Source: Leucoraja ocellata (taxonomy: Eukaryota). Taken from it: DNA of 64,000 bases. Made by a program: the position numbers and the translations under genes. How positions within the stretch are numbered: position 1 is the first letter of the stretch; each line of letters begins with the position of its first letter. The notes under the pieces were generated by a model, which had not been told where the DNA came from, ran no database searches, and saw only the letters and a program-made list of their open reading frames with translations. The DNA lies in contig JAWMAR010000024.1 of the NCBI GenBank assembly GCA_036785375.1, positions 5,518,001 to 5,582,000 of the forward strand, written 5' to 3'. Below are positions 5,056 to 58,143 of this stretch, in pieces.

Positions 5056-5415
5056 TCTGGAGGAGAAGACTAAGCTGTGAGGGTTGTCATCAATACTGAA
5101 AACAATGGTAAAAAAAGAGTTTGTAAAGAGATTTAGAAGTTGCACTTTAAAGGTAGTCCTAGATCCATGCACCAGCCTTGACCAAAGAAGGTGAATAACA
5201 CAGATAGCTAGAGAATTAATACAGTTGTACAAAAGCTCACATTTAAAATCTATGTTTAATAACAATTCAGTCTGTTTTTGGTTTAGAAACAGCTTTGTCC
5301 CAATAAACCAGACAGCTAAGGAAACGCATTCCCAGACAATGGAACCAGCGCTGTGGAACGTGGAATCTGTACAGGCCAGTAAGAGCCAATGTCATCACAA
5401 GTCATCTTACCAGTA

Positions 5416-6496: not shown

Positions 6497-6631
6497 TACT
6501 GCTACGTTGGATTTAAAGGGAAGGGAATTCGAAAGCTGAGCAAAGATTCAAATGGAAGGTTGAAAACTAAAGCGATATTTTTAAATGAAAAGGAACAAAA
6601 AAGATTGCTAATCTGCTTAATGCCAATATTT

Positions 6632-11950: not shown

Positions 11951-12339
11951 TTTTTTGTTGTTTTTCCCTCGGTCTTTTAATACTCTGTTCACTTATGTAT
12001 GTTTAGTTCAACATTTCATTCCCCTTTTTTAAAAAACTTACAAAAACTTTTCTCTCGTCATGCAAATGCACTACTTGCATAATCCCTTAATAACCTTATG
12101 TTTAGTAAAACAGCAGTCTGCAATAGAAACTTGTGAAATAAACTAGTTTGCAGTGATCTTATAACGTTATACAACAAAAGCTCATTAGTCACAAAATGGA
12201 CCTTTTAGTAACATGCCTTCAGTGTATGTGGTGGAATGTATGGAAAGAGGTAATGCATAGCTCTCTAAAGTAAAACTGCACTACTGTGTTGAATGTGCAA
12301 ACATTTATAGGTTTTTAAAGACATGTGGAGTGTTAATGG

Positions 12340-13141
12340 TCGACAAAAATGCTGGAGAAACTCAGGGGGTGAGGTAGCATCTATGGAGCGAAGAAAATAG
12401 GCGACGTTTTGGGTTGAGACCCTTCTTCAGACTGATGTGGGGGTGGGGGCGGTAATAAGAAAGGACGAGGCAGAGACAGTGGGCTGGGAAGGGGAGGGGA
12501 AAGAAGGAGAAAGCAAGGACTACCTAAAATTGGAGAAGTCAATGTTCATACCGCTGGGGTGTAAACTACCCAAGCGAAACATGAGGTGCTGCTCCTCCAA
12601 TTTACGGTAGGCCTCACTCTGGCCATGGAGGAGGCCCAGGACAGAACGGTCGGATTCGGAATGGGAGGGGCAGTTGAAGTGCTGAACCACCGGGAGATCA
12701 GGTTGGTTATTGCAAATCGAGCGGAGGTGTTGGGCGAAGCGATCGCCAAGCCTACGCTTGGTCTCACCGATGTAGAGCAGCTGACACCTAGAGCAGGGGA
12801 TGCAACAGATGAGACTGGATGAGGTGCAGGTGAACCTCTGCCGCACCTGGAAAGACTGCTTGGGTCCTTGAATGGAGTCAAGGGGGGGAGGTAAAGCGAC
12901 AAGTGTAGCATTTCCTGTGGTTGCAAGGGAAAATGCCAGGAGAGGGGATGGTTCAGGTGGGAAGGGACTAATTGACCAGGGAGTTACGGAGGGAGCGGTT
13001 TCTGCGGAAAGCTGAAAGGGGAGGAGATGGGAAGATGTGGCCAGTGGTGGGATCCCGTTGGAGGTGGCAAAAATGTCGGAGGATTATTTGTTGGGCGAAA
13101 ATGTTGGAGGATTATTTGTTAACGGAGTGTTATTGTTAATA
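12340..13141 (-). mobile_element. Penelope-like retroelement 3' part (GIY-YIG + terminal repeat)
   Basis: ORF 12520..12846 LLYIGETKRRLGDRF, closely similar to the 55.7 kb copy; 15-bp TSD gtggagtgttaatgg at 12325-12339 and 13142-13156. Confidence 0.93.
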
Positions 13142-36116: not shown

Positions 36117-38699
36117 CTATCAAAAAAAAGTGTGAAAAGGAAGTCACAAATTTAAAACATCACTTTAGCACCCTGTTGGTAGTTTTATGCTAATGAACGA
36201 TGGGACTCAATCCACTACTTTGTACATGGCCATTCTCTATTGACAGAATCTGGGGGGAAGTTGATGAGAAAGTGGGGAGAAAAAAAATGAGATTAATGTA
36301 GAATTAGTGCGTTTGGGTGATTGACGGTTGGCGTGGATTCAATGGGCTGAAGGGCCTGTTTTTGTTCCATATCTCTCTATGACTCTAATATCAAAGTGCA
36401 TGTCTTTACTCCAAAACAACCTGAAGGAAAATTGTGATCTTTACCCTGTCTACATTAGTCCAGAAGAATTTCATTTATCCAAACTGAGAAACTTTCAGTT
36501 CAATGCCAATATAGCTGACTTATGATAAGCACATAACATTATTAATATTTTATTAATATTTTGCTTTGGGTTACAATTATAATTGGAAAACCACCAATCC
36601 ATTAGATGCAAATGAGGGTATACTTTGCGTGGACCCAATATGAATCTATTACAGATTTGTTAAAAACAAATGAAAAACTAGCCGGAGTGTTTTTTATTTA
36701 ACTTGCGGACTAATTACGAAGATTTGCCTAAATTGGGAGTGCTCAGATTTTAGTGCAATACAAAATACATGTCTTTTGCCTTACATCAGGTTTCTGCAGT
36801 ACTAGTTCTATTTATAATCAGTGGTCCCAAGCCAGAGCAAAATCTTAATTTCATTCTAAACTGCTTAAGTGAAAAATAAACCGAACTAATAAATTGAGTT
36901 CACAGCACAGCCATATAAATAAAATGCACCCTGGGAGGCAGCATTCATTCGCTTGTATTAACTACCTCAGTGACCTGACACCATATGAAAGGGATATTCT
37001 GCAGAGACAAGGATGCCTTAATTATGTCAGGCTCACTTACCTCCTAGAAAATTAATGATTTAATGAAGCAACTTAAAAGATGAAACCACTACAGCATTTC
37101 TGTGTTAAATCATAGATTAATTAACATATCGTTAATGAACTGCCACAGCAAGCACACCTGATCAAAGTCCTAGTCACCTGAGCTTATCTTGTTGAAAATT
37201 TGTAATTTTAATAAAAACATTTTGCAAAATGTTTTTTTCCCCCATCAATAATAAACTTGTTTGTGCCAAAATATGTTATTGTTCTAGTCAAGAAAATTAA
37301 AATAGAGTGACATGCAAATATCCATTTTAAACTACATCCAGGTGAAGGCCAACGGAACAAAAATTTACATAAATGGAGAAAAATATGCTCCAAAATTATA
37401 GATGTATAAAGTTAAACAACATACATGTTATAACCTGATGTATAAAATAAATGACAAATGTCATATGACACATTGTTTTAAAGTGTAAAACAAAGAATCT
37501 ATGCTAAATAGAACACAGTAAATGAAATGAATATATATATATATATTGGTAACTAAATGATTAAATAGCTCAGACAAAAGGCACAAATTTAACATTCATA
37601 AATTTAAATTATATTTTTGTCAGTTCCAGGTCCCAAGAACTATCCATTTCTTTTGAAGTGAAGAGAAACTTAAAACCTTCAAATGTGTGGATAGAGAAAA
37701 TAGTGAACATGTTTAGGCTATGTTAGTAACATGTAACATATGGAAATAACAGAAATGTTTGCTTAGCTCTTATCATACTTGGAAAATAAATCTGCTCTTT
37801 CCTTCGCTTGGCAATGATGTTCTCCCCCAATCTTCTTCACACTCATCAAGCAGATATCAAAAGTTGATGGTATTACTAAGATTAACAGACCCAAGGTGAG
37901 CATAAGGGACACAATAATGCTGCAATGTTTCAAACGGATTTACAAGAAAAAAACATCAATCATTGAGAAGTTTATGTTTTCACCTCCATTTACCCAAACG
38001 ATAACTAACATTCCAATTACCTGTGAAAATTTCATTGAGATGAGGTCTGATCAGAAAAGAACAGCCACTGCAGTTTGGTTATGAAAACTTAAGTGTCAAT
38101 TCAAATTGATCTAAAAATACCGTGCCAAAAGTCTTGGTTTGCACTGTACAATAAGCCTGTGCTAAGTAATAAATGCAAGTTACGAATCCTGAGGTTCTTT
38201 AGATTAGATAATCATTATTTTAAAACTGTTAACCAATTAGAAAATCAAATCAAGAGATCAAGTGGAGTTGAGCCTGAGTACTGATATCTGGAAATTACAA
38301 TATTAAGGTGGGGGTAGGTGTTGGGAGGGAATCAACCCATTTAGAGGAGGACTAGCATGAAACTATTCACCTTGCAACACTTATCCTCCGGAACCATGGT
38401 CACTCCAACTTCAGTCACTGAAGTGCAGCGAGTAGGTAAAGCAGGATTATGCACAAACTTCAAGTTATTGTCAATTGGATCACTGAAACATACAGAAGAA
38501 TAAGTCCTATACTTAACATATGTAAAACAAAGATATTCTACTGAACTGCCTATTTGTAGAACATTGCCCTTCAATAATATAGGTGCATACTAAAACCCTG
38601 AAAATACACTTCCCATATCGTAGGAGTCTTTTCCCAATGATTTCAGACACTGATGACAAACAGTGCCCTCACATTGCTTTTGGCCAAATAAGGAGAGGA

Positions 38700-39000
38700 G
38701 TGTTTGAGGTTTAAGACCTCTAAGCAAGCACAAAACCTATAGCCTAGAAGACAGCAGTGATCTGTCCTCCTGAGTGGTTTTAAGATATGGATATCTATAG
38801 CAGGTACCGAAGATACCATCAATGCTGTCTTGTCAAACTTCACTGGCATGTGAAACAATCCAATGTCAGCATCCTATCCCTGATCAACATCCCCAGAATT
38901 GAGGTCCTAACTGCATTTGATTCTGAAGGGAAGGTCCCATTGATCTATATCCGGCACCCATGCTTCTGAAACTGTCTACACTGAACACGATCATGGAAAG
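38700..39000 (+). mobile_element. Old RTE-type LINE relic
   Basis: HQCCLVKLHWHVKQSNVSILSLINIPRIEVL resembles the RTE HQRCLR...TN..VL..A.IPSIE motif. Confidence 0.55.
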
Positions 39001-39254
39001 AGATTACCAGCTACATGAAGAAAAAAAACCCAAGAATAATACTCTTTGATAAATACAATGCATGTTCATCTTAGTCTGTTCTGTCATATAATATGATTAA
39101 TCAAAAATGCAATAGCATCCCTACCAACCTTTGTGAATCTGTGTCCCATGGTTATTGAAAATAGAAAAATATATTATAATACTGAAAACCAATGCATAAA
39201 TGTGGTGTAAGGTACTAGTTCTCATCACCTCTGCCTGGATAGTCTACAATCAAA

Positions 39255-39770
39255 AGGCATGAAGAAAGTATTCTTCAACTTCAGGTAACCCAATTCCTCT
39301 CATTCCCTTTCTGTCTTTCTTATCTATCCATTTAGCCCTTTCCAATCACCCCATCAGCCTCCATTTACAAGGGTTATTTCCCCTCCTCTACACTCATCAC
39401 CTACACATTGTTCCCACTAGGTCCCCTTCTCTCCGTCCATTGTTCCAATCTGCCCATTTCTCCCTTATTACATTCAACTCTTCCTTTCTTATGTACCATA
39501 ATCTGCAGCTCTTTGTTGTCTTCAATTATCCACTCCCAGCCTCTGTCAGTGTTTCCACGTTTCCCTCCCCACCTGACTCCATTTGCCAATTGACCTCTCC
39601 TCATTTCGATCCACCAATCGTTTGCCAGCTCGTGCAAAATCCTCCACCTCTTTATACTGTTCATCTTCCCCCTACTCTTTCAGTCCAGATGAAGGGTTTT
39701 GACTGTCCATTTCCCTCCACAGATGCTGCCTGACTTGCGTTCCTCCAGCAATTTGGTTTTTCCTCACACA
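39255..39770 (+). mobile_element. Old Penelope 3' end with degenerate terminal repeat
   Basis: ttcaacttcaggtaa, a pyrimidine-rich UTR, then cagatgaagggtttt...cagatgctgcctgac...ctccagca. Confidence 0.6.
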
Positions 39771-40248
39771 CTGCATGCATCTCCTAAACCAACTGCGGCA
39801 TAGATTAAGGGTTCCACCATGGCTCCATCAGCATTTTCAGAACCGGTGTGGAAGCAAGTTAATCTCAGTCCTGGGGAACTGTTTAAATTAATGACCATCG
39901 GGTCTTCTGATTAAAAAAAAACTGTTAAGAAAACTGCATGTTATATGTACCTATGTTTGTTGAATGTTTATTTTTCAATCTTTGTTCTGAGAATAGTTAC
40001 CTTCATCACAGATATCCACTTTGTTAATACACATTGCATCACCTACAAAACAAGACTATAACTACTTAATATCACACGTGAATTTAGTGTATCCTTAAAT
40101 GGATGCCTTGGAGTGGGTTAACAAAGAATATCAGTTGCACAATTGTTGTAAGCCATTAAATTTGTTTGAAATCAAATGAAATTGTAAGTAATTGTTCAAA
40201 ATTGCTCATCCTCCTCCACTCACTCCCATTCCCTGCCCCAGCACCTAC

Positions 40249-40473
40249 CCAGGACGTAGAGCAGCGCCAGGGCCTGGAACTCGGCCTGGTTTGCATACTC
40301 GGCCCGGCCCTGGCTGTAGGTGGCCGAAGCACTCGTGGACCTGGGCCTTGACGGAGCCGAGCTCGCTGTGTGGGGGACTGGGTGAGGGTGGCGGGCGGGC
40401 GGCCAAGCCAGAGCTGCCCACAGAGCAGGAAGCGGAGGCTGTGCTGCAGGATCAGTTCAGCAATGCCCCTTCC
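40249..40473 (-). pseudogene. SAC3D1-like (SAC3/GANP domain) exon fragment, frameshifted
   Basis: Three frames join to GIAELILQHSLRFLLCGQLWLG.../HSELGSVKAQVHECFGHL/TYSQGRAEYANQAEFQALALLYVLG, resembling recalled SAC3D1 (QAQVQEGFG..Y....Q..FQ.L.LLYNLG). GC-rich against AT-rich flanks; ends in G|GTAGGT. Confidence 0.75.
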
Positions 40474-40667
40474 TGACTGACAGGAGAGGAGACCAATCTG
40501 CATGGCGGTGACGAAAAGCAATCTGCGCATACAAAGTTTTTACTATTTTAAAACATTAATAACTTTTAAAATATATAACTTTTAAAATATATCATCGATC
40601 GGAACGAAACTTGTTGCACTCGCAGCACAGGAGAACGGTGAGTAAGCTGGCGAAAAATCATAGCGCA
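40474..40667. mobile_element. Interspersed repeat fragment abutting the SAC3D1-like piece, possibly the interior of a non-autonomous Helitron
   Basis: CpG-containing block (gatcggaacgaaacttgttgcactcgcagcacaggagaacggtgagtaag) recalled as a skate repeat; diagnostic termini not present. Confidence 0.4.
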
Positions 40668-40849
40668 GCATGTTCCAGGTACCCACCCTAAAAACAGCCC
40701 CGCACATCTCCTTTAAACATGGCCCTCTCATCTTTAACCTTTCAGTACTGAGTCCATTATACACCTAAGGTACAAAACCTGCCTTATAATATGCATAATA
40801 GTACCATCTTTGTAATTCACCTTCTAATAATGACTGGCTCATTATTAGA

Positions 40850-41199
40850 AAATACCGTTTGACCTGTTTTTACAAAATGTTAAATGGCCAGCTCGACATA
40901 GATTACAAAACCTACAACAAACCCAAACCAGGAGCAGACGAGGGCATTCGATCCAGAGGGCATTCGATCCAATTGAGGTACCAGCTACCAAGACAGATGT
41001 GTACAGCAATTCATTCGTCTCCCGCAAAATTGAAGTGTGGAATAGTCTTCACCCTACCATAGTTACCCAACCAGATGCAACTAAATTTAAGGTAGATCTT
41101 CCTTCCCAAGAACCCTTTCTGGCTTAAGTCATCCCTCCACCACCTCCAGTTTAAATTACATTTGGAATATTTTGGAGGACCAGGAAACCAAGAACCAAG
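40850..41199 (+). mobile_element. Non-LTR retrotransposon 3' end (CR1/Jockey-group-like)
   Basis: RLTCFYKMLNGQLDID...RGHSIQ...NSF...WNSL; (aaccaag)n tail; internal duplication gagggcattcgatcca. Confidence 0.75.
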
Positions 41200-43914
41200 G
41201 CTCCCTACTATCCATATCGATTCCTATTTTACAAAGCTGATCACCTAGCGATCATAATTAACGGAAGCATAATTTATTTTAAAATAAAAGTCTGAGGAGT
41301 GAGAAATCTTTTTAACCAGCAATGACTTACAATATTAAACTGTCAAATACAAACAGTAATTGAAGTGATTATCAAAGGCACGTTACGAGAAAGCAGATGT
41401 ACACAGGAGGTAAACGATGAAAAGGATGTTTCTTAGAATTACTTTACGATGGCAAATGTATTGGTTTAGGCCAGTTGGACAGAAAGTAATTTCTGGGTAT
41501 ACATTTTATGTAATGTCAATAAATTATAACAAAAGAAATGTACACATTGCACAAGACTCGATACATAGATACAGTTAGAAGACAACTTGCAAACCTTTGT
41601 GAAAAAGAAACATTTTAAGATATTAATTTTACAGATAGGATTAATGTTGCCAATAATGTAAAATTTACTCTTTCAGCTGCTCAGTTCGTTTTAATTATAA
41701 CTGAAATTTTTGTAAAAAATTACAGTGACACTTTATTTTGAGTAAACTGTCAACTGATAAAACGACAGCAAGCAGTTTGGTATCCTGGTAACAAACAAGT
41801 CTTATGCTGTTCCACTATGCTGTTTCCAAGCAGTTCCCCAAAGCAGAGCATCAAGAACATGACAAATAGAGTCATTATCTTTTCATAGATCACATTAGAA
41901 AGATTTTTAGCTGATTTAACTGTTTTTAGTTTAAGATGTGGCTATAATGATAATCTATGTCCATACCAATTTGAGGTGTAATCAAGACACTTTTTAGTTA
42001 TCTTTACACAATTTATAAATAAAATGGTTCCAATATTTTCAGTCCAAATCATGTCATAGAAAACAATCTGTATTACAAACTCAATTTAAGGGGCAGAATA
42101 GTCAACAATCATGCAGTTGGTTGCAAATCCAGTGCAAAAGGACCCAGTCGTCAAGAGGCAATGATCAATGTAATTGCCAAAAGAAAAGAAAACTAATTGT
42201 TTTTAATGCATGAGATCCCATTATGTTAGAACCAGATCACTGCAAAGCATCATGATTTTATTATGAATGCATTATGTTTCAAGTAGCATTGGTCATTTGT
42301 GTAACATTAAACCACTGGCAGGTAAAACAAAGAGCACTGCAATTTATGGCTAAACATTTGCTTGTTTGATATGATTTCTCGATAGAATACAAAACAAAGT
42401 TTTGCAAACTGTCTGTACTTGTACAAGGTTGACCTATCTGTACTTGTACAATGTGTCAAACATTCCAAGAAATTTAGGATGGATCTTCAGTAGTACTGAT
42501 TTAACTAATCCCAGCTGGGGCACCACAATTAGCCTCAGCGTCTTCAGGTTAGGCACATGCTTTATCACTATTCAATGGCTCAATGCTGCAGGTTCGTAAG
42601 GGTGAAACTTGGTTGAGGTCAGGGCTCAACTGTAGAGGCCTCTATGGTCAAAATTCATGTAAAATTTATGTGCAGGGGCCACACATATAAAAAGAAAACT
42701 TGGAAAAGAAGTGCAGAGAGACAGAAATTTGTAGAGTAATGCTCCACCAAGGAATTAGCAGTTTCTGGAGAATTATAGAAAAAATAGCAAGAAGAAAGCT
42801 CTCAAGTAGTTTTAGTGACAATTGGAATTAATTTTAATACAAGATTTCTTCCTGAAAATACTTGTTTCAATGAGAACGTACTTATGACATTTAAGACCAA
42901 ATGGCTTGGAGGAGTCACTGTTTTCAACAATACAAGAAAGCTCAAACAAGAGAGTTAAAATGACAGGGTTACTGAAGCATCGTGAATTAATTACTGCATT
43001 TCTACAGATTTAATTCAGCTATCTCGCTGTTTGGCATGGTAGCTCCTCCCATCTAATTCTCCCAATTATGTTCTTAACATTCTTTAAATAAAACTTACAA
43101 AAACAGAACAAAAAAAGTCAAATTTAATGAAGTTAATCAGAGTTCACATATGGTTTGACCTTTAAATGGTGACAAGATTACGCTTTTATGATCCAACCAT
43201 TAACATGAATGTATAAGCCACCATTACACAATTGTAAATCTTTCTCCATCTACTGTCCAACTTTTAATTACTGATTAGATGAATAATTTCAATGCAAACT
43301 GAAACATATGTACTTTCTTTCTTCACAGATGCTGCCTGCCTTGGTGAGCCTTTTCCAGTTTTTTTCTCCGTTTAAACTCAGACGTGTATCAAGCAGGACT
43401 TTGTTTATGATAGAAAAATATCCTTATCTGCTTTATTACAGATAACTGCAGCAAAATTCTATGTTTGCCAATTATTTTAAATGACAGTCAATGTCAGAAA
43501 GTTTGGTAAATATCCTTGCGTGTCATAATGCAATCTGAGGAGGTTTGGGTGGCTGAATACAGAAAGTTCTTGATATTATTAATGGTGTAGGGAGACTGGA
43601 AATCTTGTTGGCAAGAATATATTGGAAATTGATAAAAGAGATGAGAAAGGATGAAGCAGATTGCAATCAGTCATACCAGTTCCTTAAAGCTGTGCTATAC
43701 CTTATCAATGCGATTTCATCCAGTTGCCAGATGTTTTGAACCATGCTCAGAGAAATTAGCAATGAACTTGATGAACATTTGAGAATCAACCCATCAAGGT
43801 GGTTGGCCACTACCACCAATCCCATGAGGATCTCCTTTATATACATTGCTAAGAAATATTGGGGCTATGCATGTAAGGCATTTGGGGTCAAGATTTTTTT
43901 ATTTTGAAATGTCA

Positions 43915-44113
43915 GCATCCATTCCCTGTCTTATCTGCAGGTAAGGAGCCTGAAATCTGCAACATCCAGGTTCAGGAATAGCTGCTGTTCCCCCACAGCC
44001 ATCAGGCTATTAAACTCAACTAAAACAAAACTCTGATCATTAATTGCCCATTGCACTTTATCTGTTTATTGTCCTATCAGGGCACATGACAATAAACTCT
44101 CTTGAATCTTGAA
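43915..44113 (+). mobile_element. Rex1/Babar-type LINE 3' end, short
   Basis: aggagcctgaaatctgcaacatccaggttcaggaatagc...gccatcaggctattaaac; tail cttgaatcttgaa. Confidence 0.7.
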
Positions 44114-45694
44114 ATTTACTACTCGAGAAAGTAGTTGAGAGAAACAGCCTGGTATGTAAATTAAGAAGATACAAATAGACGTTGGGAGAGGAAAGGCGTA
44201 TGAGTGGGCATGACTACAAGCTTGAACTTGTTGAGCAGAATTGGATATTTCTGTACATACTACACAAACATATTTAAATTAATATTGATAAATAATATTA
44301 GCAGGTTATGAACGGGTTAGGTGAAGGAATTCCAAAATTATCAGTACTGATCTAGGAAATACCAGCAATGTATAAAACATAAAAGTTATTTATTCACAGA
44401 TTTCTTTGATATTTAGTGCTAATAATGGATACTATGTGATACTTACACCATTTTGGGATTCAAGAAATTCTGAGCCCTTTCATTTTTTTAATATCCAGCC
44501 TAAAACTAGAAGTGTTAGAAATTTAATCTCATTGGCAAATGCTTTTGGAGTTTGGATGAAATTGCCAATATGACTATTACCAACTTCATGCTACAAAACA
44601 ATCTTTTGGATGGCTATCCAATGTAAATGGAACAATTTTAAAAGCCTGTCAGTAGTACAAAGTCAAATTACACTGTCTGTATGTGAGAGAGGGAAATATG
44701 TTTCAAATTTCATAAAAATACATATTTCATAAAAATATATATTTCAGTTCAAAATGACTAGCAGAATTAATAATATTTAATATTTTCCATTACATATCCG
44801 CCTTACCTTTCAACAAAGATATTCAGCAATACCACCATAATAAATAATTAACAGTTGTTTAACAAAATCTTCATATTGCTGTTACAAATAATTAACTAAC
44901 GTTTAATAAAAGCTGCTGTAACACTGCAATAATCAGTTAACAATATTCCTTAAATACAAACAACTGCAACATTTGCTAATTGTTCATAGGTCAACAGTTT
45001 TGCTGAAAATTGATCATGGAAGCTCCTTTATAAATATTTAATAACCAACAATTAAGCTGTTAATCACTTGTAGCTACAGTGCAATTAAATGTATAATGCT
45101 AGCTCAGAATTTCGCACTTAAAATTGAAGTGTTTCTAGTTGGAGCTACTCTGAGGTTAGAAATATTGGAGGTTATTGACCAGTTTCTAGATTGCAATGGC
45201 AAAGATCTGATGCCATAAAATCACTATGCCCTTACATTGCCAGAAAGCTTTGGCAGATATATTTTATAAAAAATGTTGGGTATAATTGATGTTTTGTAAG
45301 CCTGGCCATCTCCAAAGCATTACACCTGGCTGGAATTGGAAATATAATTCAATTGGATCAAGTTGGATTGGAAATATAATTCACAACTAAAGTTTTAGAT
45401 TTTTTACCCTATTTCAATGCCATAGAATGCAATGCAATAGAAACACACTTGTAGATTGCATGTTAAGAATTATTTGGCCATAACTCCCAAAGAAAACCAT
45501 TGTCACATTAACTTGAAATGGAGGTATAAACACTCCGAAATCACAAGTGTAAAAGTTCAGAGAAAATTTCTAAAACCATTCTTCAGAACGTGGCCACTTT
45601 AGAAAATATTAACAGGATTAGACAAAATCAACATGGATTAATGAAAGATAAATTAGATTTGAAAATCTACTAGATATTTTGTGGATGCATCAGG

Positions 45695-47610
45695 AGTCAA
45701 GCTTGACAATATCTTTCCAAAACGGTGCCCAGAACTGAACACAATTATTCAATTATTCAACTGCTGCAATCTTTCACAACCATCTTCACTATCTGCAAAA
45801 CCACTAACTTTTGTATCATCAGCAAACTTGCTAATCTTGCCCTGTATGTTCTCATCCTAATCATTGATGTAGATGGCAAACAGTAACGGGCTCAGCACCG
45901 AACCCCGAGGCACACCACAAGTCACAGGCCTCCAGTCCGAGAAGCAACCTTCTACCATCACCCTCTGCTTCCTTCCATTGAGCCAATTTGCTATCCATTC
46001 AGCTATCTCTCCTTGGATCCCATGCAATTTAACCTTCCAGAGCTGCCTCATGCAGAACCTTGTCAAACGCCTCACTGAAGTCCATGTACACAACATCTAC
46101 AGCTCTGCCCTTATAAAACATTTTGGTCACATCTTCAAAAAAATCAATTAGATTTGTGAGACATGACCTCCCATGTACAAAACCATGCTGACTATCCCTA
46201 ATCAACCCTTGCCCATCTAAATGGCTGTACAACCTATCGCTCAGAATACTCTCCAGTACCTTCCAACTACATATTTTTAAGCTCACCGGCCTATGGTTCC
46301 CAGTAGTTTCCCTGCAGCCCTTCTTGAAAAGAGGCACAACACCAGTCTTTCGGCACCTTTCCTGTATTTAAGGATGACTCGTAAATTTCAACCAGGGCTC
46401 CCGCAATTTCTTCTCTAGTTTCCCCGCTATGTCCTCGGATATATCTGATTAGGCCCTGGAGATTTATCTACCCTCACACAACAGTACCTTCAGTACTTCT
46501 TCAACAGTAACCCTGACTGCTCTCAAGACACTTCCAGTGACTGCTCCAATTTCCTCCCTGTCTTTCTCCTCAGTAAATACAGAGGAGAAATACTCATTTA
46601 GGACCTTACCCATCTCCTGTGGCTCCACACAGAGGAGATAGCTTTGATTCCTGAGAGGTTCCACTATGTCTCTGGTAACCCTTTTCCCCTTTATGTGTTT
46701 ATAAAATATTTTGGGATTGTCCTTAATGCTCCCCACCAGAGCTATCTCCTGGCCCCTTTTTGCCCTTCTGAGTTCCTTTTATAGTTTACTGTCACTTAGT
46801 TCCCAAAACTCCTCCAGTGATGCATTTGAACCCAGCTGTCTATACCTGTCCCATGCATTCTTCTTGTTTTTGACTAACTTCTCAATTTCCCTCGTCAGCC
46901 AAGTTTCCTTACTTTTTGCCTGCTTTTCCCTTCACTCTAACATGGACGTACACATCCTGAACTTTCTTCAGTACTCTTTTATAAACAGCCCACGACCGAT
47001 ATTCCTTTCCACTCAAATAACCTGCTCCAGTCAACTTGAGCCAGATCTTCTCTCATACCTTCAAAGTTGGTCTTACCCCAGTTGAGCATTTTAACATGTG
47101 GACCCGCTCCATCCCCATCCATAACTTTCTTAAACCTAATCGAACTGTGGTCACTGGTCGCAAAATGCTCCTCCACACACACTTCATTAATTTGCCTTTC
47201 CCAATTTCCCAATACTAGACCCAGCATTGCTCTCTCACGTGTGGGGGCCTCCACATACTGCTTAAGAAAACTCTCCTGAACACTTTTGAGGAATTGTACC
47301 CCATCTAAACCTTTCATGCTATGATTTCCCCAGTCTATATTCCCCCTACTACAACTATCTTATTTGACCTGCAATCTCCTGGCACATTTGTTCTTCTAAT
47401 TCCCGTTGACTATTCAGGAATAGTACACCCCCAACAAGGTGATCATCCCTTTCTTGTTCCTTAGCTCCACCCATATAGCCTCACTAGATGAAGTGTCCAT
47501 AATGTCACCTCTGAACACAGCCATGACATCCTCCTTAACCAACAATGCAACCCCACTCCCCCTCCTCTTTTTCCCCCACCCGTCCCTCCTGAAACTCTTG
47601 TATCCTGTTT
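45695..47610 (-). mobile_element. CR1-like LINE ORF2 fragment (endonuclease + RT), decayed
   Basis: SDHSSIRF, KDNPKIFYKHI, SQHGFVHGRSCLTNLIDFFEDV, VVYMDFSEAFDKV, GVPRGSVLSPLLFAIYIND. Confidence 0.95.
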
Positions 47611-47659
47611 AAATAGTGAAAGAATGGGAACCTCAAATGAGAAATACTTAATATGTCCT

Positions 47660-48170
47660 TGTATATCAGTCACTGAATGCAAACATGCAGATGAAGCAGA
47701 TAGTTAAGATAGCAAATGGAACTTAGGCCTTTAGAGAAAGCAGCTTTGATTACAGGATCAAGGATAATTTACTGCAAATATACGTCAAAGGTGAGAACAC
47801 ACATGGACTATTTGGCACATTTCTGGTCTCCATACAGGTAGTTCACTAGATTGATTCCTGCAATGTCATGACTCTCTTAAGAGGTGGGGCTGTCTTGTGA
47901 GGTGGGATTAGCCGACTAGTTATGTATTCACTGGAAATTAGGAAAATGAGAGGGGATCTCATGGAAAAGTTCAAATTCCTGACACGACGACAGTCTTGAT
48001 TCAAGGAGGATGAGGGCTGATTATATTTACGATGATGATAAATAGTTTTCTGGGCACAAAAGGTGTCAAGCAATATGGGGAAAGAGCGGGAATGTGGCAC
48101 CGAGAAAGAGGATGAAGCATGATCGTGCTGAATGGTAGAGCATGTTCAAAGGGCTTACTCCTGCGTGTAG
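47660..48170 (+). mobile_element. Old CR1-like LINE 3' part
   Basis: Degenerate match to CR1 C-terminal coding region and 3' UTR. Confidence 0.65.
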
Positions 48171-49429
48171 GTTTCAGCTTACTTTATCTTGGGTATTTTG
48201 AAAGGGTCAAAAGTGTTGACCATCACCATCTTATCATGGTTTTTCATATAATTATTTAAACTATGGGTGATCAGAAGTAAATTAACTTATGTTTGAGTTT
48301 CATTCCTAGACAGGAACAACTTTCCATTGTTTAACCATTGAAACGTTAAATGAGAGTTGTTTTTTAAATGTGCTGTAGAAATAAAAGTGACTTGACTTGA
48401 CCATTTTTAAACTTCCCCCCAGAAACAAATATTTATTTGTGTTACTTGCAATTTTAATATATATTCTGCTTATGATGCAGCTTTCTTTACACCAGAGAGC
48501 CTAAACACACATTGAAGGACACCTTAATTTTAATGTTTCAGCTGTGATATGAGATATCCCACTCCCAGCATGATCTTTCAGACATTGAAAGAACTTGTAC
48601 CTTTCGTATTGTTCGTGCGGCTCAATCTATTGCTATTGTCCAACAGACATTGGCCTCCCAAATAATTTTAATACAGCTCAAGGAATCTCACTAAACAGCA
48701 CTTTATCTTTTGTTAAAGGAGTGCACAGCCTTCTAAAAATGAGAGGAACATTTTAAGATGACTGTCATATTTAGATTTCTCTTTATTGGGCTCAAATTAT
48801 ATGTAAACCTCCCATTCTCACATTGTCCTTTGCCTTGCCAGATTATCCTCTTATACATTCCACTTTCTCAGAGATCATCCCTTTTGGTTTTACCTCACTT
48901 TCTACGGCTACATTTCCATTTTTAAAGTTTTATACATTTCTATAATTCCCCTATTCTTTGGGGGATTATAAAACAAACACCCATTCACCTGTAATAAGAT
49001 ATAAAGCAATTTAGTATTTACTTGAAGTCAAGTGTCCCCTGCCTCTAATTTGAAGTTGACGGATTTGAGACGGACTTTAGGGACAGAAAGTTTCATTGTC
49101 CTGTCCAATTTCACCTTCAACTCGCACAACAAAAAACTATTAATTGGACATTCCTGTTTTTGGAACCAGCACAGAAGCAAGTTGATTGCTCTCTTCCTAT
49201 ACATAAAGAATCACAGCAATAGTTATGTGGCTGTAAAATGATTTGGGTCACATGGATATTGCAAAAGGTACAAGTTCTTTGTTTTTTTAATATATTCCTC
49301 ATTGTTGTGGTGCAAAGATCAATGGTCACATTGGAAGAGTTATAAATCTGCCCTCGAAGTTCTGTGGCAAATTCAATTACGTCCTTTTTTAAGAAATTGA
49401 ATCTGAAGCCCTGAGCCTTGCACCTGGTT

Positions 49430-49696
49430 NNNNNNNNNNNNNNNNNNNNNNNNNNNNNNNNNNNNNNNNNNNNNNNNNNNNNNNNNNNNNNNNNNNNNNN
49501 NNNNNNNNNNNNNNNNNNNNNNNNNNNNNNNNNNNNNNNNNNNNNNNNNNNNNNNNNNNNNNNNNNNNNNNNNNNNNNNNNNNNNNNNNNNNNNNNNNNN
49601 NNNNNNNNNNNNNNNNNNNNNNNNNNNNNNNNNNNNNNNNNNNNNNNNNNNNNNNNNNNNNNNNNNNNNNNNNNNNNNNNNNNNNNNNNNNNNNNN
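49430..49696. other. Assembly gap (267 N)
   Basis: N run. Confidence 1.
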
Positions 49697-49999
49697 CCAC
49701 AACTAAATGCAAACACATAAAAATAGCATTAGGCATGCAGCCTCTTACCCGGCCCTACTAGTCACTGATGAACTACTACATCAACTTCAATTTACTGCCC
49801 TAATCCCATCCGTACCGCTAATATTAAGGCTTATGTATACTGATAAACTGAGTAAGTTCTACTTGAAGAACCAGAGCCACATGAGACAAAAACACATTCA
49901 GAAAATTAGAGGGAATGGTGCATAGGGTGAAGATGAAAAGTGGGCCAAAGGGCATGTTTCCATGCTGTATCTTTATATTTCACATGCAACTACACAAGA

Positions 50000-50138
50000 T
50001 GAGTGCTGGAGATACTCAGTGAGTCAGGCAACATCTGTGGTGGGAATACCTAGATGATGTTTCAGGTGAAGAAGGGTCCCGACCTGCCCATTTCCTAATG
50101 ATCCCACAGATACTGTCTCCAGTTCTTTGTGTTTTGCT
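50000..50138. mobile_element. Degenerate Penelope-terminus-derived element, inverted arrangement
   Basis: tgctggagatactcagtgagtcaggc (minus) then tgaagaagggtcccgacc...ctccagttctttgtgt (plus). Confidence 0.6.
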
Positions 50139-50149
50139 CTTTCTTCTTT

Positions 50150-51420
50150 GTACTACTTTGGTAAATTCCATCTACACCCTTTAGAAAAAAAATAATAGTC
50201 TTCCTATTGTTTGATGCTTATAATTGAATGCACCTCTAGCTGAGGTTTTTCTAATCACCGTTTTATAAAGCCTTGTCTCTCTACATTATGAAATGCTTTG
50301 GACTTCACATGCTTTTTTTTTTAAAGCCTTTACAGGAAATTCTACACACATGTTCCCTGCTCTCTCTGTTTCTGCATTCAATTTAAAATACTATCATTTT
50401 CATAAAATTGTGTTTTCATATTCATTCTAACAATAAATCTCTCTTTAAAGTGTTGGTGAATTTCATTTGACATATGTTTATCCATTTCACCAGTCTATAT
50501 CCATGTCTTTCTAATGCCAATTATCATTGTCCTCATTGTTTATTACATGCCCAAATGTAGTCTCAATTATTTCCAGATCATTAAAATGAATCAAAAACAA
50601 CAGTGTCCCCGTTACTGACCCAGAGGGAACATCAAAGCACACCTTTTTTGTGTCTGAAAAACAATAGTTCACAACTCCTCTCTGATTTCTATACCCTAGA
50701 CAATTTTGTATCCATGCTGCCACATGCCTTTAATTACTTGGGTATTAATTTTAGTAGGTTTATTTTACCATAATTTACCATTGTAAATCCAAATATCAGC
50801 CCTTTACAGTATTTCATCAAAGATCTTAATCCAAAATCACATCCCAATTCTGGTCTTTAAAATTTACAATACTACCAACATTAGGCTGCAGTTGACAGGT
50901 TTAATCCTCTCTTTTTTCACATATGGGGAGAAAAGGATCACCAAACATAAAAAAGAGATATAGAAAATTTAAACCAAAACTTCTACTATTGTCCTCCAAA
51001 GTTACATAGGACATATACCAAAAAGACCAAGTGATTATTGTTCTCCCTTTGACATCATTTAAGCACCTCCTTGTTATCCTACCCAATACTGTAACCACCT
51101 CCTCCATTAGCAATATTCTCTTCTCTACTTAAGACAGATGCAACATGCTTGGTTGGCACATTAGCAACACTTTCTGCCTCCATTACAATATCTTATATGT
51201 TGTCCCTAATTGTTTCCTCTGTTCCATTGACTAACTTTTATGCTCTGCGTGTTGTTAAAAGATTCTGATTTCATGCCAATCTCCCTTATGCCAATTCTGC
51301 CCTGTTTGATTCATTTTTAAATCTTCTCAGTACATTTTATTTTTGTGGTCCCATCAATTTTAATATTATGAAATACATACATGCAGTGTGCATTACAAAC
51401 ATTTACCTCAAAAACCACAG
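50150..51420 (-). mobile_element. Old CR1-like LINE fragment
   Basis: ORF 50511..50723 WIQNCLGYRNQRGVVN...VPSGSVTGTLLFLIHFND. Confidence 0.7.
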
Positions 51421-52892
51421 TGAACACACTTCACCTCCAAAAAAAAAATTACTTGAATATATTTTAACCATCAATAAAGCAATTTGACAATTTTTTGGTG
51501 AATGTTAACTGTTAATAGTTAGAGGATAAATGTGTCCTTAACATTTTGGAAAAAAAAAGTGTGAATAATTTTTCAAAATGAAACATCTCCATTTTATATA
51601 ATTATCACCTTCTTTATTAGATTACCACCCCACATTCCCACGGAGAATTTTAAGTGTTAATATATGGGATAAAATGTGTTAATGGAGAGAGGCAGAATTC
51701 ATTTCCAACATATGTAAGTTTTGCAATGAACAGATGATTTCCTATATGTTAAATCACACAGAATCTTTCTAATTATTATTTTCTCAGTAAAAGCACAATA
51801 TGAAGTTTGAAATACTGCAGAATTTCTGCCATTTTAGCTCAAGAATGAATTGTGAAAGGAACTCATAATGATTCTGTTTATTCCTCACTTAAATAAGGAT
51901 TGTTGTTAAGAATGGCATGAGTCATTTAATATGAATAGTTTCCAAGCACTTACAGGACAAACTCACAATACCAATCCTCAGAAAAGGACTCGAGTTTATA
52001 AAGATTTATACTGGGAATGTAATCTCTGTGATTGTAATTGATTTTCAATATTTGTTTCAAATACTTTTCAAATATTTGTTTTATTTGCTTTCTCTTTACC
52101 TCAGAATAAAACAATCCAGCTACTCTATCAAAATGATTTCGTATCCTGGCCGTTTGTATCAACAAGATTGTTAGATTGCTGCCAATTCTTGTGCAGTGGA
52201 TTGGTGCCTACGTAAGCTGAATTGAGAGAAAGCCTAATGTTCTTTTATTCATGACATCCATGATGGAGAACATCATCTGTTCATTTCTATTTGAGCTGAA
52301 TGATGGAATACAGGTCACAGAGTTAAAAGGATGATGCTTCAATGTGTTGTACCAGTTCCTAAACCATTCTTCTAACAAGCCACAGTTGGCACCAAAACAG
52401 ATGAACATCAGCGTACATTATTCATACTGCAGTGAAAAGTAAATCTTAGTTTCTACAAACTGGGTACATTGACCAATGAAGGTTTAACAAGTAAAATTCC
52501 CCATTAAACAAAACTATAATCCAGAAAATCTATTTTCAAGAGTAATTTAAAGAAACTTCAGAAAATTAGAGAGTAAGTCTGTTTTTGAAAAACTTGATGT
52601 CTTTCTTTCAAATAAAGATATAATAGAAACTTTCCTCTGGGAAGGAAAATTGCAAGACAACTAAATGGAATAATTGATCCTGAAGCAATTAATCGCCACC
52701 AACAATTCTTAACAAGCTCCAGATGGAGTCACACTTTCATCATTATCCTTTCCCCACTTGCCCTGAACCAGACAGCTTATGATTTCTGTTTTCTAAGCAG
52801 GGTGCAGACTGCATAGCCTCTTCATTAAAAAGCATTTTCACTGACAGTAATTTTTTTGCTCTCTACCCTCTCTCATCCATTCTAATTTATCT

Positions 52893-52992
52893 GAATTAGT
52901 CTGAAGAAGGGTCTCGACCCAAAACATCGGCCATTCCTTTTCTCCAGAGATGCTGCCTCACCCGCTGAGTTACTCCAACATTTTGTGCCCAC
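52893..52992 (+). mobile_element. Short Penelope-terminus-derived element
   Basis: agtctgaagaagggtctcgaccc...; 11-bp TSD ctaatttatct at 52882-52892 and 52993-53003. Confidence 0.9.
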
Positions 52993-53699
52993 CTAATTTA
53001 TCTCAGTATTTTTCTGAAAACATCATGGATGTAGTTTCCCCTCACCAGACTTTACTATTTCTCCACATGTATGCTGGTATCCTTCTCCACCAATCTCCTC
53101 CTACCACCTAATGGCTCCCAAATCTTCAGAAACCCCAATCACCTTTGACCACCGTTAATATCAGTCCATCCAGAGCCCGACTTTTACGCTCTGGAATATC
53201 CTCTCAAAAAAACTCAATTTTCTTAGAATTTCTTGGACCACTTAGGCTTTTGGGTGCTGCTCCCCAAATCTCTTCCATTGACAGCCTTTATGTTTTGATT
53301 ATGCCTCCGTGAAGTGTTTTGGGACATTTTTCACTACGTAAACATAAGCTGCTTCTGAATCCCTAACCAATATCCAGCTCCTAATTAATAATTAACCTCC
53401 CTATAACAAATTGCTTGTTAAATGTTAACAAAAAAACAAAAAACAGACTCAAAGCAGGATTTTGTTGTTTCATAGCCGTCCACTAATTAATTAGGAAGGA
53501 CGAATAGAGATTCACCATTGAATGAGGTCACCAGTCTGCCTGCAAATACATTCAACAATGCAAATATGTGAGTATTATTTAAAAAAAAAAAATCCTACAA
53601 TGTATTTTTATTTTTAATTCCTGGGCGTTTTTTTTTACATAGTCAACTTAACTGATGAATAATATAAACATAACAAGGAGCAGAAATGTTAACAATTGT

Positions 53700-54690
53700 A
53701 GTCTTATGATATAATTGACTAAATTCATACATTTGCAGAGAACACAAAGATTGGTGGTGTTGTGGACAGTGGAAAAGCAGGATGTAGATTGGTTACAGAT
53801 ATGGCCGAAGAAATGACAGATGGAGTTCAATTGTGAGGTGTTGCATTTTGGGACGTCTAGTGTAAGGGGAACGTATAGTTAATGGTAGGATCCTTGACAG
53901 CATTGGGGTACAGAGTGATTGTGGGCTCCAAGTCCACAGCTCTCTAAAACTAGCAACACGAGTGGATAGAGTGGTAAAGAAAGCATATGGTATGCTTACA
54001 TTCAGGGTATTGAGTATAAGAATCAGTCAGTCATATTGCATCTATGCAAAACTTTGGTTAGGCCACATTTGGAGTATTGTGTACAGGAATAATGTGGAGA
54101 GTTTCGGGAGGGTGCAGAAAAGGCTTATCAGGATGCTGCCTGGATTAGAGAGTATTAGCTATAATGATAGGTTGGACAAACTTGTTTTCTTTGGAGTGTT
54201 AGATGTTGAGTGGGAGACCCGATGAAAGTTTGTGAAATTACGGGAGGCATAGAAAGGGTAGACAGTCAGAAGATCAGTCAGACACAAAAAGCTGGTGTAG
54301 CTCAGCGGGACAGGCAGCATCTCTGGAGAGAAGGAAAGGGTGATGTTTCAGGTCGAGACCCTTCTTCAGTCAGAGCCTTTTTATCTGGCTGGAAATGTCA
54401 AATACTATAGGGCATAGCTTTTAGGAGAGAGGGAGGAAATTTTGAAGATGTGTGGGGCAAGGTTTTTTTCCACAAAAAGGGGTGGCAGGTGCCTGGAACA
54501 CACTGCCAAGAATGATGGTGGAAGTAGATACGATCTTGGCGTTAAAGAGTCTTTTAGATAAACACATGAATGTGCAGGGAATGGTGACATATGGATCATG
54601 TGCAAGCAGAAGGAAATTACTTTTCACATTATGTTCGGTACAGACATCATGGTCCAAAGATCCTATCCCTGTGCTGTTCTGTTCTGTGTT
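53700..54690 (+). mobile_element. CR1/HER1-like LINE 3' part
   Basis: DRVVKKAYGML, RVQKRLIRMLPGLE, GVAGAWNTLP; tail gtgctgttctgttct. Confidence 0.9.
54280..54370 (-). mobile_element. Short Penelope-terminus-derived element nested in a CR1
   Basis: Reverse copy ending gtcgagacccttcttcag; cagtcaga repeated on both sides. Confidence 0.85.
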
Positions 54691-54719
54691 CTTTGTAAAA
54701 AGTACTGATAATCTATTCA

Positions 54720-56272
54720 CCAGACTGGGTGATCAAGCCTGCCGACAAGGGAGGTGCCGTGGTAGTCTGGCGCGGTGATCTCTACAAGGCTGAGGCCACT
54801 CGCCAACTCTCAGACACCTCCTCCTACTTATCCTTGGACCATGATCCCACAGATGAGCGCCAGGCCACTATCTCTAGCACTATGATGGACTAAATCACTT
54901 CCGGCAACCTGCCCTCCCAAGCCTCCAACCTCAATGTTCCCCACCCCCGCACAAGGCGTACCAGGGCCTTATCCCCAAACTCTACCTCCGCTACATCGAC
55001 GACTGCATTGGTGCTACCTCCTGCACCCACACACAACTCACTGACTTCATCCATTTCACCACTAACTTCCATCCGACACTCAAATACACCTGGACCATTT
55101 CCGACATTTCCCTACCATTTCTAGTCCTCACTATCTCCATCGCAGGGGATAGACTACTGACCGACATTCACTATAAACCCACTGACTCCCATGGGTATCT
55201 GGACTACAGTTCTTCCCATCCTGCTTCCTGTAAGGACTCCATCCCCTACTCCCAATTCTTCCGTCTATACTGCATCTGCACACAGGATGAGGTGTTCCAC
55301 ACCAGGGCATCGGAGATGTCCTCAATCTTCAGGGAACCGGGGTTCCCCTCTTCTACTATAGATGAGGCTCTCACCAGGGTCTCTTCTATACCCCGTAACT
55401 CTGCTCTCACTCCCCATCCCCCCCACTCGTAACAAGGGCAGAGTCCCCCTTGTCATTACCTTCCACCCTACCAGCCGTCACATACAACAAATAATCCTCC
55501 GACATTTTCGCCACCTCCAATGGGATCCCACCACTGGCCACATCTTCCCATCTCCTCCCGTCTGCTTTCCGCAGAGACCGCTCCCTCCGTAAATCCCTGG
55601 TCAGTTCGTCCCTTCCCACCCATACCACCCCCTCTCGCGGCATTTTCCCTTGCAACCGCAGGAAATGCTACACTTGTTGCTTTACCTCCCCCCTTCACTC
55701 CATTCAAGGACCCAAGCAGTCTTTCCAGGTGCAGCAGAGGTTCACCTGCACCTCCTCCAACCTCATTTATTGCATCCGCTGCTCTAGGTGTCTGCTGCTC
55801 TACATCGGTGAGACCAAGCGTAAGCTTAGCGAACGCTTCGCCCAACACCTCTGCTCAGTTCGCATTAATCTACCTGATTTCCCGGTGGCTCAGCACTTTA
55901 ACTCCCCCTCCCATTCCGAATCCGACCTTATTGTCCTGGGCCTCCTCCATGGCCAGAGTGAGGACCACCGTAAATTGGAGGAGCCGCACCTCATATTTCG
56001 CTTGAGCAGTTTACACCCCAGCGGCATGAACATTAACTTATCTAATTTCAGGTAGTCCCTGCTTTCTCCTCCCCTTCTCAGCTCTCCCTCAGCCCACTGT
56101 CTCCGCCTCTTCCTTTCTTCTTCCCGCCCCAACCTTACATCAGTCTGAAGAAGGGTCTCAACCCAAAACGTTGCCTGTTTCCTTCGCTCCATAGATGCTG
56201 CCTAACCCGCTGAGTTTCTCCAGTGTTTTTGTCTACCTTCGATTTTCCAGCAACTGCAGTTCCTTCTTAAAC
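54720..56272 (+). mobile_element. Penelope-like retroelement, 5'-truncated with internal deletion (RT + GIY-YIG endonuclease + terminal repeat)
   Basis: IKPADKGGAVVVW, YLRYIDDCIG, HYKPTDSHGYLDYSSSHP, NLIYCIRCSRCLLLYIGETKR (ORF 55729..56055); imperfect 13-bp TSD gataatc(ta/ga)(t/c)tca at 54707-54719 and 56273-56285. Confidence 0.93.
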
Positions 56273-57078
56273 GATAATCGACTCAGTATACTTCACAAAG
56301 ATAAAATGTAATTTATGAATTGTTTTGAGTAAAATTGCAATAGTATACAATTTGTCTTTTGGAAATTATTCACCATGAGCTCTGCTTCTAGGAATTTTGG
56401 TTGCACAGGCCCTGCATCCAGCTTGCATTAAGTTTGTTTGACAATTCATGTAAGTGGCCATAGGTAAAAGAAATAGATCAATGTACAGAAGAACTCAGCA
56501 TCTTTTGATGTTTGACTAGGTTGAAGAAGCCCTACAAATTCAGGTTATTGCTACATTACTTCCACAATTGCGGAGCACAACATACACTTTCAAAATTGTG
56601 CAATGACAATATAGATTAAAGATTCTGGTTTTGCACTGCATCATCTTCATCCTCATTTCAGTTTAGAGTCTGTATAATAGCGGTAACAGAATAATTTGAA
56701 TACCGTGAAAACTAATGAACAAACATCTTTTGGGAAAAATGCACTCTGAGGCAGCTCCTGGCAGTCAGCCAATTTGCAGAAGATTTAACCTTAAAGGCTC
56801 CTAATAAATAGAGGCGATAAATGAAGAGGCAGGTTACAGTGGTTATTAGATGAAACACAAATCAACAAGCAAATTAAGGACAGTGAATGAGTGTTGTGGA
56901 GCATGCTAATCAAGTTGTACACTGCAAAGTGGACTGGTGAAACATTGTAGTGGTGACTCAATTGTTATCTATTTCAACTATGCTTGCTCCTCTCCTCCCA
57001 ATCCCTTTCTTCAATGAGTTGGATGACCTCAGGATGAATTGGGCAAAAAAAAGCTCAACTGCCACTGTCAAGTGGTAG

Positions 57079-57227
57079 AAAGAACTGTAGATGCTTGTTT
57101 ACACCGAAGATAGACACAAAATGTTGGAGTAACTCAACGGTCAGGCAGCATCTCTGGAGAAAAGGAATAGGTGACGTTTCGGGTTGAGATCCTTCATCAG
57201 ATTACTCCAGCATTTTACTTCTATACT
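57079..57227 (-). mobile_element. Short Penelope-terminus-derived element with intact hammerhead-like core
   Basis: Minus strand CTGATGA AGGATCTCAACCC GAAAC GTC; 16-bp TSD cactgt(c/t)aagtggtag at 57063-57078 and 57228-57243. Confidence 0.88.
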
Positions 57228-57859
57228 CACTGTTAAGTGGTAGCTGATGTGACTTCAGTATACAGGAAATAGATTAAAAACAAGTCACTCCCAGTAAGGA
57301 TCTTCAGAAGATCGCAGCTTCACTAGAGCAGAATTCTTTCTCAAGTTACTCCCCATTAACACTTGAAACTAGATATCATCAAATCAATTTTGCTCGCCTT
57401 CGTGACCATCCACAATTATAACGTTCCTCGACCTTTGGTATTAAGCAAATTGGTGATAGGCATAATCGTTTACTTGCTCGTCCAGTCACACAAGGTAAGA
57501 AGCAATTCTTAAGACTGGCAGAAGAGAGCACAGGTAATTTGTTACAAAGTTACATTTCACATTAAAACTACCAGCTCTTGTAACAACATTCCCTTTAATT
57601 AAAAATACATTAACATTGTTATGGATTCCAAATTTAAAGCAAACTCCGTTTAGTCCTATAAACTCTATCAAAGCTATAAATAGAAAACAATAGAAAAGTA
57701 ATATGAAAAATCTGGCCCATATACCCAGAGTATCGACAACAGATTACTTACTATACAATAAAAACCTTTTACAAGTACAAAGACATATTTGAATGCAATT
57801 GTGTTAAAGCAATAACATGATCATGAAACAACTATATCTGCTGCACTTAATATCAATTT

Positions 57860-58040
57860 AGAGATTTAGATTTTAGACATTAGGTGCAGGAGTAGGCAAT
57901 TCAGCCCTTCGAGCCAGCACTGCCATTCAATGCGATCATGGCTGATCATCCCAAATCAGTACCCCGTTCCTGCCATCTCCCCATATCCCCTGACTCCGTT
58001 ATCTTTAAGAGCCCTATCTAGCTCTCTCTTGAAAGTATCA
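57860..58040 (-). mobile_element. CR1-like LINE 3' tail
   Basis: taggtgcaggagtaggc...tgatcatccc, same family as 29983-30352. Confidence 0.85.
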
Positions 58041-58143
58041 AGAAAAGCATCTTGAAAGTATCAACTCTCTTGAAAATTTTGGGCAACATAATAACATAAT
58101 GGGCAACATAAAGCTCTCACCAGAGCTCAAGTGAGGCACCTAC

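Follow-up and report, generated by a model that had tools for sequence, protein, structure and literature searches.

Introduction

Gene capture by Helitrons is known in plants as well as in animals. Helitrons are defined by a 5' TC, a 3' hairpin with CTRR, and insertion between A and T without target duplication (PMC4778049). In bats, 110 of 645 Helitrons carry host sequence, which has been amplified to 12,382 copies and is biased towards the first exon and intron (PMC4224331), and in Xenopus laevis the Heli1Xen1 family holds 19 fragments in 64 insertions, with at most 17 copies of any one fragment (PMC12001565). Among cartilaginous fishes, Helitrons are present in the whale shark (PMC8455134), the elephant shark is described as having few DNA transposons (PMC6817897), and the repeats of the little skate are described as LINE-dominated in a main text that contains no 'helitron' (PMC10115646). 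The word 'shark' is absent from the main text of a survey of Pack-TIR elements (PMC8277862), the main text of HELIANO contains no shark or skate (PMC11417382), and in PMC10468316 'helitron' occurs in the references only.

A literature search found no report of transposon gene capture in chondrichthyans, and an initial annotation of the DNA described here likewise knew of none; supplements and Repbase/Dfam may already hold the family. A search of the same literature for SAC3D1 exon structure found no paper. Here we describe a 64-kb stretch of DNA (the window, meaning the whole stretch analysed) in which the initial annotation had placed a SAC3D1-like fragment, abutting a repeat, within an intron of ELP4.

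Results

Identity of the island and its host gene

The island and the intron that holds it comprised two main features, given by window position and strand:

58143..36117, minus strand: host ELP4 intron, 22,027 nt, phase 2 (Pfam PAXNEB exons and splice sites)
40249..40452, minus strand: decayed copy of the skate SAC3D1 coding region for residues 214-284 of protein P0001 (frameshift-aware alignment)

GC content was 67% at 40205-40473 against 30% in the left flank, as expected from the earlier description of a GC-rich island in an AT-rich intron, and the three peptides read at that time were all present on the minus strand of 40204-40667. Their assignment to SAC3D1 was borne out by protein search, Pfam, PDB ranking and frameshift-aware alignment. 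When the last peptide (31 residues) was searched exhaustively with HMMER against 1.84 billion proteins, the sole match was P0001 (XP_078252027.1; E 2.9e-4, 88% identity), a 444-residue protein of the skate Rhinoraja longicauda named SAC3D1-like. P0001 matched Pfam SAC3_GANP (PF03399) at 4.7e-69, was closer in PDB to human SAC3D1 (8e-51) than to GANP (1e-24), and its nine other matches were every one a ray, skate or shark SAC3D1; the best protein match of the island was a SAC3D1 orthologue, not GANP or another SAC3 protein. Searched singly, island peptides gave no Pfam match (0 of 4) and no meaningful PDB match. Word-indexed protein searches found nothing for the 51-residue frame or among short proteins matching SAC3D1 residues 200-290, and ESM Atlas returned no usable match for the 31-residue piece.

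Frameshift-aware alignment of the island to P0001 scored 253 (23-37 for eight shuffles) and gave 56 identities in 66 aligned residues across two frameshifts, one of 4 extra nt near 40401-40390 and one of about 11 missing nt near 40319. The peptide extent first proposed stood from I214 (40452) onwards, but 'AEL' at 40461-40453 was not parent-like and was ruled out as part of the homology by this alignment. Because the first frameshift lies at about 40401-40390, the frame of the first peptide as originally read differs in its last residues only. Compared with skate SAC3D1 (P0001), the island covers only 71 of 444 residues, is frameshifted, and has neither start codon nor downstream exon; it is not a gene. 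The piece contains skate-only extra residues that are missing from Pristis, Mobula and shark SAC3D1, and its source was therefore a skate gene.

The SAC3 domain of skate SAC3D1 proteins (P0001-P0004 and P0013-P0016) is interrupted by a proline/glycine/alanine repeat of variable length, an insert that Pristis, Mobula and sharks are without. The SAC3D1-like records of Rhinoraja longicauda (P0001 versus P0002/P0003) lie one on a 6.6-kb contig and one on a 32.8-Mb contig, and represent either a duplicate or an unmerged haplotype. A public spliced SAC3D1 (P0017) has an odd, unrelated start and carries Q where seven other aligned proteins have E. This Q (Q216) is common to P0017 and the ELP4-intron piece, and P0017 may join SAC3D1 to an element copy, either as a true chimera or as one created in assembly.

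ELP4 was confirmed as the host gene by PAXNEB matches on either side of the intron, on the same strand as the piece (profile positions 136-165 upstream and 193-261 downstream). The label 'intron 5' presumes human numbering. A 28-residue exon at about 36116-36032, which had no Pfam or PDB match, is presumably part of ELP4, judged by motif and splice phase. The same intron contains a 267-N gap at 49430-49696, 9 kb from the island.

Donor-like junction

Two further features adjoin the coding piece:

40243..40248, minus strand: GTAGGT, a donor-like hexamer where protein similarity stops (alignment; same hexamer as the ELP4 donor at 58143)
40205..40248, minus strand: purine-rich, intron-like post-donor stretch that other copies also have and with which the parent intron likely begins (high depth; contigs collinear across the donor)

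SAC3D1 similarity ended at the first base of codon Gly284 and was followed by GTAGGT, while the parent protein continued with unrelated residues; the fragment had been said to stop at G|GTAGGT and run on into about 45 nt of intron-like sequence, and the alignment end agrees. G|GTRRGT occurred at 1.1e-4 per base in the window, a figure that overstates the case for a donor because the letters could partly come from parent Gly-Ser codons and because a weaker donor candidate lay 4 nt further on. Among the 32 contig pieces listed, five crossed the donor with 20-41 differences (records 2 and 3 of run X1; records 10, 11 and 12 of run X12). Other copies therefore carry the exon and the 45 nt of post-donor sequence together.

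No joined next exon after Gly284, no poly(A) and no target duplication were found at the island. The initial annotation had argued against a processed retrocopy from the kept donor junction and the lack of poly(A); both points held, and the next residues of the parent were absent. Since the donor and the sequence after it are retained, and neither poly(A) nor an Rfam or Pol III head was found, capture very probably took place at the DNA level.

Copy family

Contigs of four of the 24 listed runs were aligned to 39900-41100 at 80% likeness: X1 (organism A), X4 (organism B), X12 (organism D) and X19 (organism H, RNA by guess). The left flank was single-copy in the three DNA organisms (depth 32 in X1, 18 in X4 and 7.3 in X12). 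Depth relative to this flank (X1/X4/X12) was as follows:

40228-40268: 1384/921/2314
40269-40309: 837/602/1268
40351-40391: 26/32/43
40392-40432: 99/89/124
40474-40514: 1020/951/1179
40597-40637: 10204/7479/7554

Over the SAC3D1 piece, depth was 26-2,300 times that of the single-copy flank in three organisms, where summed contig depth is no copy number, as repeats are overcounted and short overlapping contigs inflate it. Distinct contigs numbered 104-112 at 40254 (counting up to 128) and 16-35 across 40349-40379. We read these figures as a family of the SAC3D1 piece that numbers tens of copies at the least and probably hundreds or more; depth and distinct contigs in the three organisms both point to many diverged copies. 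The fragment is real, but the ELP4 copy is a secondary, cut relic of a large family, which the initial annotation had not seen, and not the capture event itself. Across the island, depth dropped roughly 50-fold, and many copies may therefore contain the 3' part alone.

Fifteen majority letters at 40242-40420, taken from 40 listed of 242 differences, restored eight parent residues without moving any away, so that identity rose from 56 to 64 of 66; six of the 15 were CpG decay in the ELP4-intron copy. This return to the residues of the parent shows that the contigs over the piece are true homologues, and low-complexity matches were for that reason rejected as the source of the depth. Other copies had about 20-41 differing letters per 150-250 and several deletion variants, which suggests many independent loci. 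The SAC3D1 piece is almost certainly a multi-copy captured gene fragment.

None of the listed runs was given as an RNA run; run X19 had contigs over parts of the island and the repeat, which show neither transcription nor splicing. One SAC3D1 piece occurs within the window. Pattern scans for further copies or a full element found none in viral contigs, in prokaryote genomes or in a first metagenome scan; two matches in a second metagenome scan were of 22-23 nt only and were taken as chance.

Adjoining repeat

The piece is separated from the repeat by a short linker:

40453..40473, no strand assigned: short linker, not SAC3D1-like, likely a deletion junction of the ELP4-intron copy (contig stops; alignment)
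40474..40666, no strand assigned: high-copy repeat piece, likely the carrier, with depth reaching some 10,000 times that of the flank (contig depth; most family contigs run on past 40666)

The repeat originally placed at 40474-40667 proved to be high-copy, as is the island, but its right end is 40666. A joint from 40280 to 40470 was present in one contig each of X1 and X4, so at least one other locus links the SAC3D1 piece to the repeat; the link suggested between the two was seen at one other locus in two organisms, among the 15 of 81 joints listed. We hold with considerable confidence that the piece was carried together with the adjoining repeat.

Eleven of the 32 listed contig pieces stopped at 40450-40452 and continued with other letters, which suggests a deletion there in the ELP4-intron copy. 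Beyond 40666, contigs ran on with one consensus (205 in X1, 217 in X4 and 178 in X12), of which 30 letters are listed, and the ELP4-intron copy is therefore cut inside the family. Go-back joints near 40473-40508 in other copies point to internal tandem subrepeats in those copies, a feature common in Helitrons. The repeat piece (40474-40666) showed no sign of a SINE, having no Rfam tRNA/5S/7SL match and no A or B box; a snoRNA match in Rfam (E 0.2) fell below the gathering score and was rejected. CpG observed/expected was 1.42 in the repeat (40474-40666, 38% GC), 0.46-0.59 in the SAC3D1 piece and 0.15-0.24 in the flanks.

Flanks and age of the ELP4-intron copy

The copy lies between two flanks of different kinds:

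39900..40204, no strand assigned: left flank, single-copy and found in each of the three DNA organisms (contig depth)
40665..40718, no strand assigned: right flank, a truncated part of a different repeat with 75% likeness to 4685-4741, joined via a 2-nt GC overlap (repeat comparison)

We take the right-flank repeat to be LINE-like. Unique contigs of X1 and X4 both ended at 40234, 30 letters past 40204 and one short of the bridging rule. The left-flank contig of X4 differed at 3 of 321 letters, and the orthologous copy appears to be X4 record 30, which covers 40306-40465 with 6 differences. The left flank in X12 stopped at 40201 and was followed by 220 other letters, and its right flank, with 61 other letters, began at 40666 (orientation deduced from the numbering of other minus-strand records). 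Organism D, represented by this one run, had the family, neither junction and no clean empty site; this suggests that the ELP4-intron copy was acquired after organism D had branched off and that host DNA was lost with it.

No target duplication was found at the edges of the island and repeat, and a 5-nt word at 40193 and 40671 was rejected as one because it is not flush with the edges. In the ELP4-intron copy, cut at 40666, neither edge showed a hairpin or CTRR, a TC end was lacking, and no inverted repeat joined the two edges. As this copy is cut short, these absences name no family; its right junction is moreover secondary.

Elsewhere in the window, an element of about 1.1 kb at 5414-6498 has 35-nt terminal inverted arms (5403-5437 and 6475-6509), apparently TA-flanked, and several nested long inverted repeats in its GC-rich inside; its look is, we assume, that of a Tc1/mariner-type MITE. 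Repeat copies at 12338-13093 and 55485-56237 are 89% identical, have a weak GIY-YIG match (E 0.095) and are likely Penelope-like elements. The open frame at 54878-55432 had no Pfam match and contains what we take to be a reverse-transcriptase-like motif.

Possible effect on splicing

One feature of the repeat bears on splicing of the host gene:

40472..40498, minus strand: pyrimidine tract with two AG (40477, 40473), a possible cryptic acceptor (located in the repeat; sense shared with the donor and with ELP4)

Candidate exons in the ELP4 frame stop after 7 or 4 codons, and the candidate cryptic exon may for that reason be a poison exon at most. The ELP4-intron copy is most likely neutral debris.

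Discussion

The multi-copy depth, the majority letters that restore the parent, the copies that cross the donor and the second locus joining piece and repeat make the SAC3D1 piece most likely the cargo of a non-autonomous transposon, taken up as DNA. That the carrier is a Helitron, and that this holds jointly with a multi-copy fragment, carriage with the repeat and DNA-level capture, is on balance probable. A Helitron is favoured by skate repeats with a similar inner stretch, which presumably start with TC and end with hairpin-CTAG, by the internal tandem subrepeats, and by the cargo itself, since high-copy exon and intron cargo is typical of Helitrons (PMC4224331).

A carrier of the Pack-TIR or MITE type (e.g. 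hAT, PIF), with the fragment taken up as DNA by gap filling or template switching, was weighed against this. An element with terminal inverted repeats and a GC-rich inside is present in the same window (about 5414-6498), and the ELP4-intron copy is cut, hence its TIRs could be lost; however, that copy has no inverted repeat across its edges and no target duplication, and the go-back joints near 40473-40508 point to tandem subrepeats of the sort common in Helitrons. Animal multicopy Pack-TIRs favour GC-rich cargo and show microhomology, but only four multicopy cases are given for the surveyed reference genomes (PMC8277862). We regard such a carrier as unlikely.

Still less probable is an RNA route, in which unspliced SAC3D1 pre-mRNA would have been reverse transcribed by a LINE into, or together with, a non-autonomous retroelement and then amplified. 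The LINE-like piece that we assume in the right flank would suit it, but the SAC3D1 piece ends at the point at which the next exon would be spliced on, there is no poly(A), tandem tail, target duplication or Rfam tRNA/5S/7SL head, and only two one-mismatch B-box-like words were seen, none of them in the repeat. LINEs dominate skate repeats (PMC10115646), and in bats mRNA has been retroposed into elements that then amplify (PMC4224331).

About as improbable is tandem or satellite amplification of a unit containing the SAC3D1 piece, with occasional dispersed copies laid down as repair filler. Contigs cannot separate tandem from dispersed copies, depth is very uneven along the island, and the ELP4-intron copy, which breaks off within the family on one side or both, has a 2-nt overlap and seems to have been accompanied by a loss of host DNA; Helitron-derived arrays occur in Xenopus (PMC12001565). 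Against an array, the 20-41 differences per 150-250 letters and the several deletion variants suggest many independent loci, and the ELP4-intron copy is a dispersed one whose left flank is unique. A one-off duplication of SAC3D1 beside an unrelated repeat by chance, or an assembly chimera, would fit the sole copy in the window but is largely refuted and very improbable, given more than 100 distinct contigs at 40254, high depth, a second locus joining piece and repeat, and a left junction found in contigs of two organisms, though with just 30 letters beyond it, one short of the bridging rule.

Under the favoured reading of Helitron cargo, the end of a SAC3D1 coding stretch and about 45 nt of likely intron would have been captured as DNA in the skate lineage while the element was copied by rolling circle, through either end bypass or gap filling. 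The cargo-bearing subfamily would then have multiplied, to tens of copies at the least and probably to hundreds or more. After organism D had split off, one copy, comprising an internal part of the element, would have entered the ELP4 intron, either by transposition followed by deletions or as break-repair filler that also removed host DNA. It would since have decayed neutrally, by CpG loss and frameshifts, and would have no coding function.

A bolder reading, which we consider distinctly unlikely, is that skates harbour a large unreported Helitron-like family whose cargo acts as a cassette exon (pyrimidine tract and AG from the element, donor from SAC3D1), seeding poison exons and possibly silencing the parent, with P0017 as its trace. 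If true, hundreds to a thousand or more intronic copies would seed poison exons, shared small RNAs could silence parent SAC3D1, and P0017 would be the trace of a chimeric RNA.

With this finding, transposon gene capture reaches cartilaginous fish, a group described as having LINE-dominated repeats, and the copy number of a single fragment seems well above those reported in Xenopus. The SAC3D1 piece provides a probe with which an apparently undescribed skate element family can be found, classified and dated, and presence or absence of single copies could mark phylogeny among skates. Copies can also inflate SAC3D1 read counts and confuse assembly and annotation.

Comparison with known systems

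Transposon gene capture is itself known; new here is a multi-copy captured gene fragment in skates, likely the cargo of a non-autonomous Helitron. Animal Pack-TIRs are alike in DNA-level capture of GC-rich exon and intron pieces and in junction microhomology, but they are defined by TIRs and target duplications, neither of which was seen in the skate copy, and are mostly single-copy (PMC8277862). Heli1Xen1 is alike in placing host coding fragments inside non-autonomous elements of a non-mammalian vertebrate, whereas depth in skates suggests a much larger family for a single fragment (PMC12001565). The bat Helitrons have mapped TC and CTRR ends and empty sites, whereas the skate piece is known without ends and its cargo is the end of a coding stretch only. 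They are alike in that copies decay and in that cargo splice sites may act on host genes, and HelibatN217.1, which carries TMBIM4's 5'-UTR together with its first exon and part of its first intron, likewise holds a short exon and partial intron in a high-copy, non-coding element (PMC4224331).
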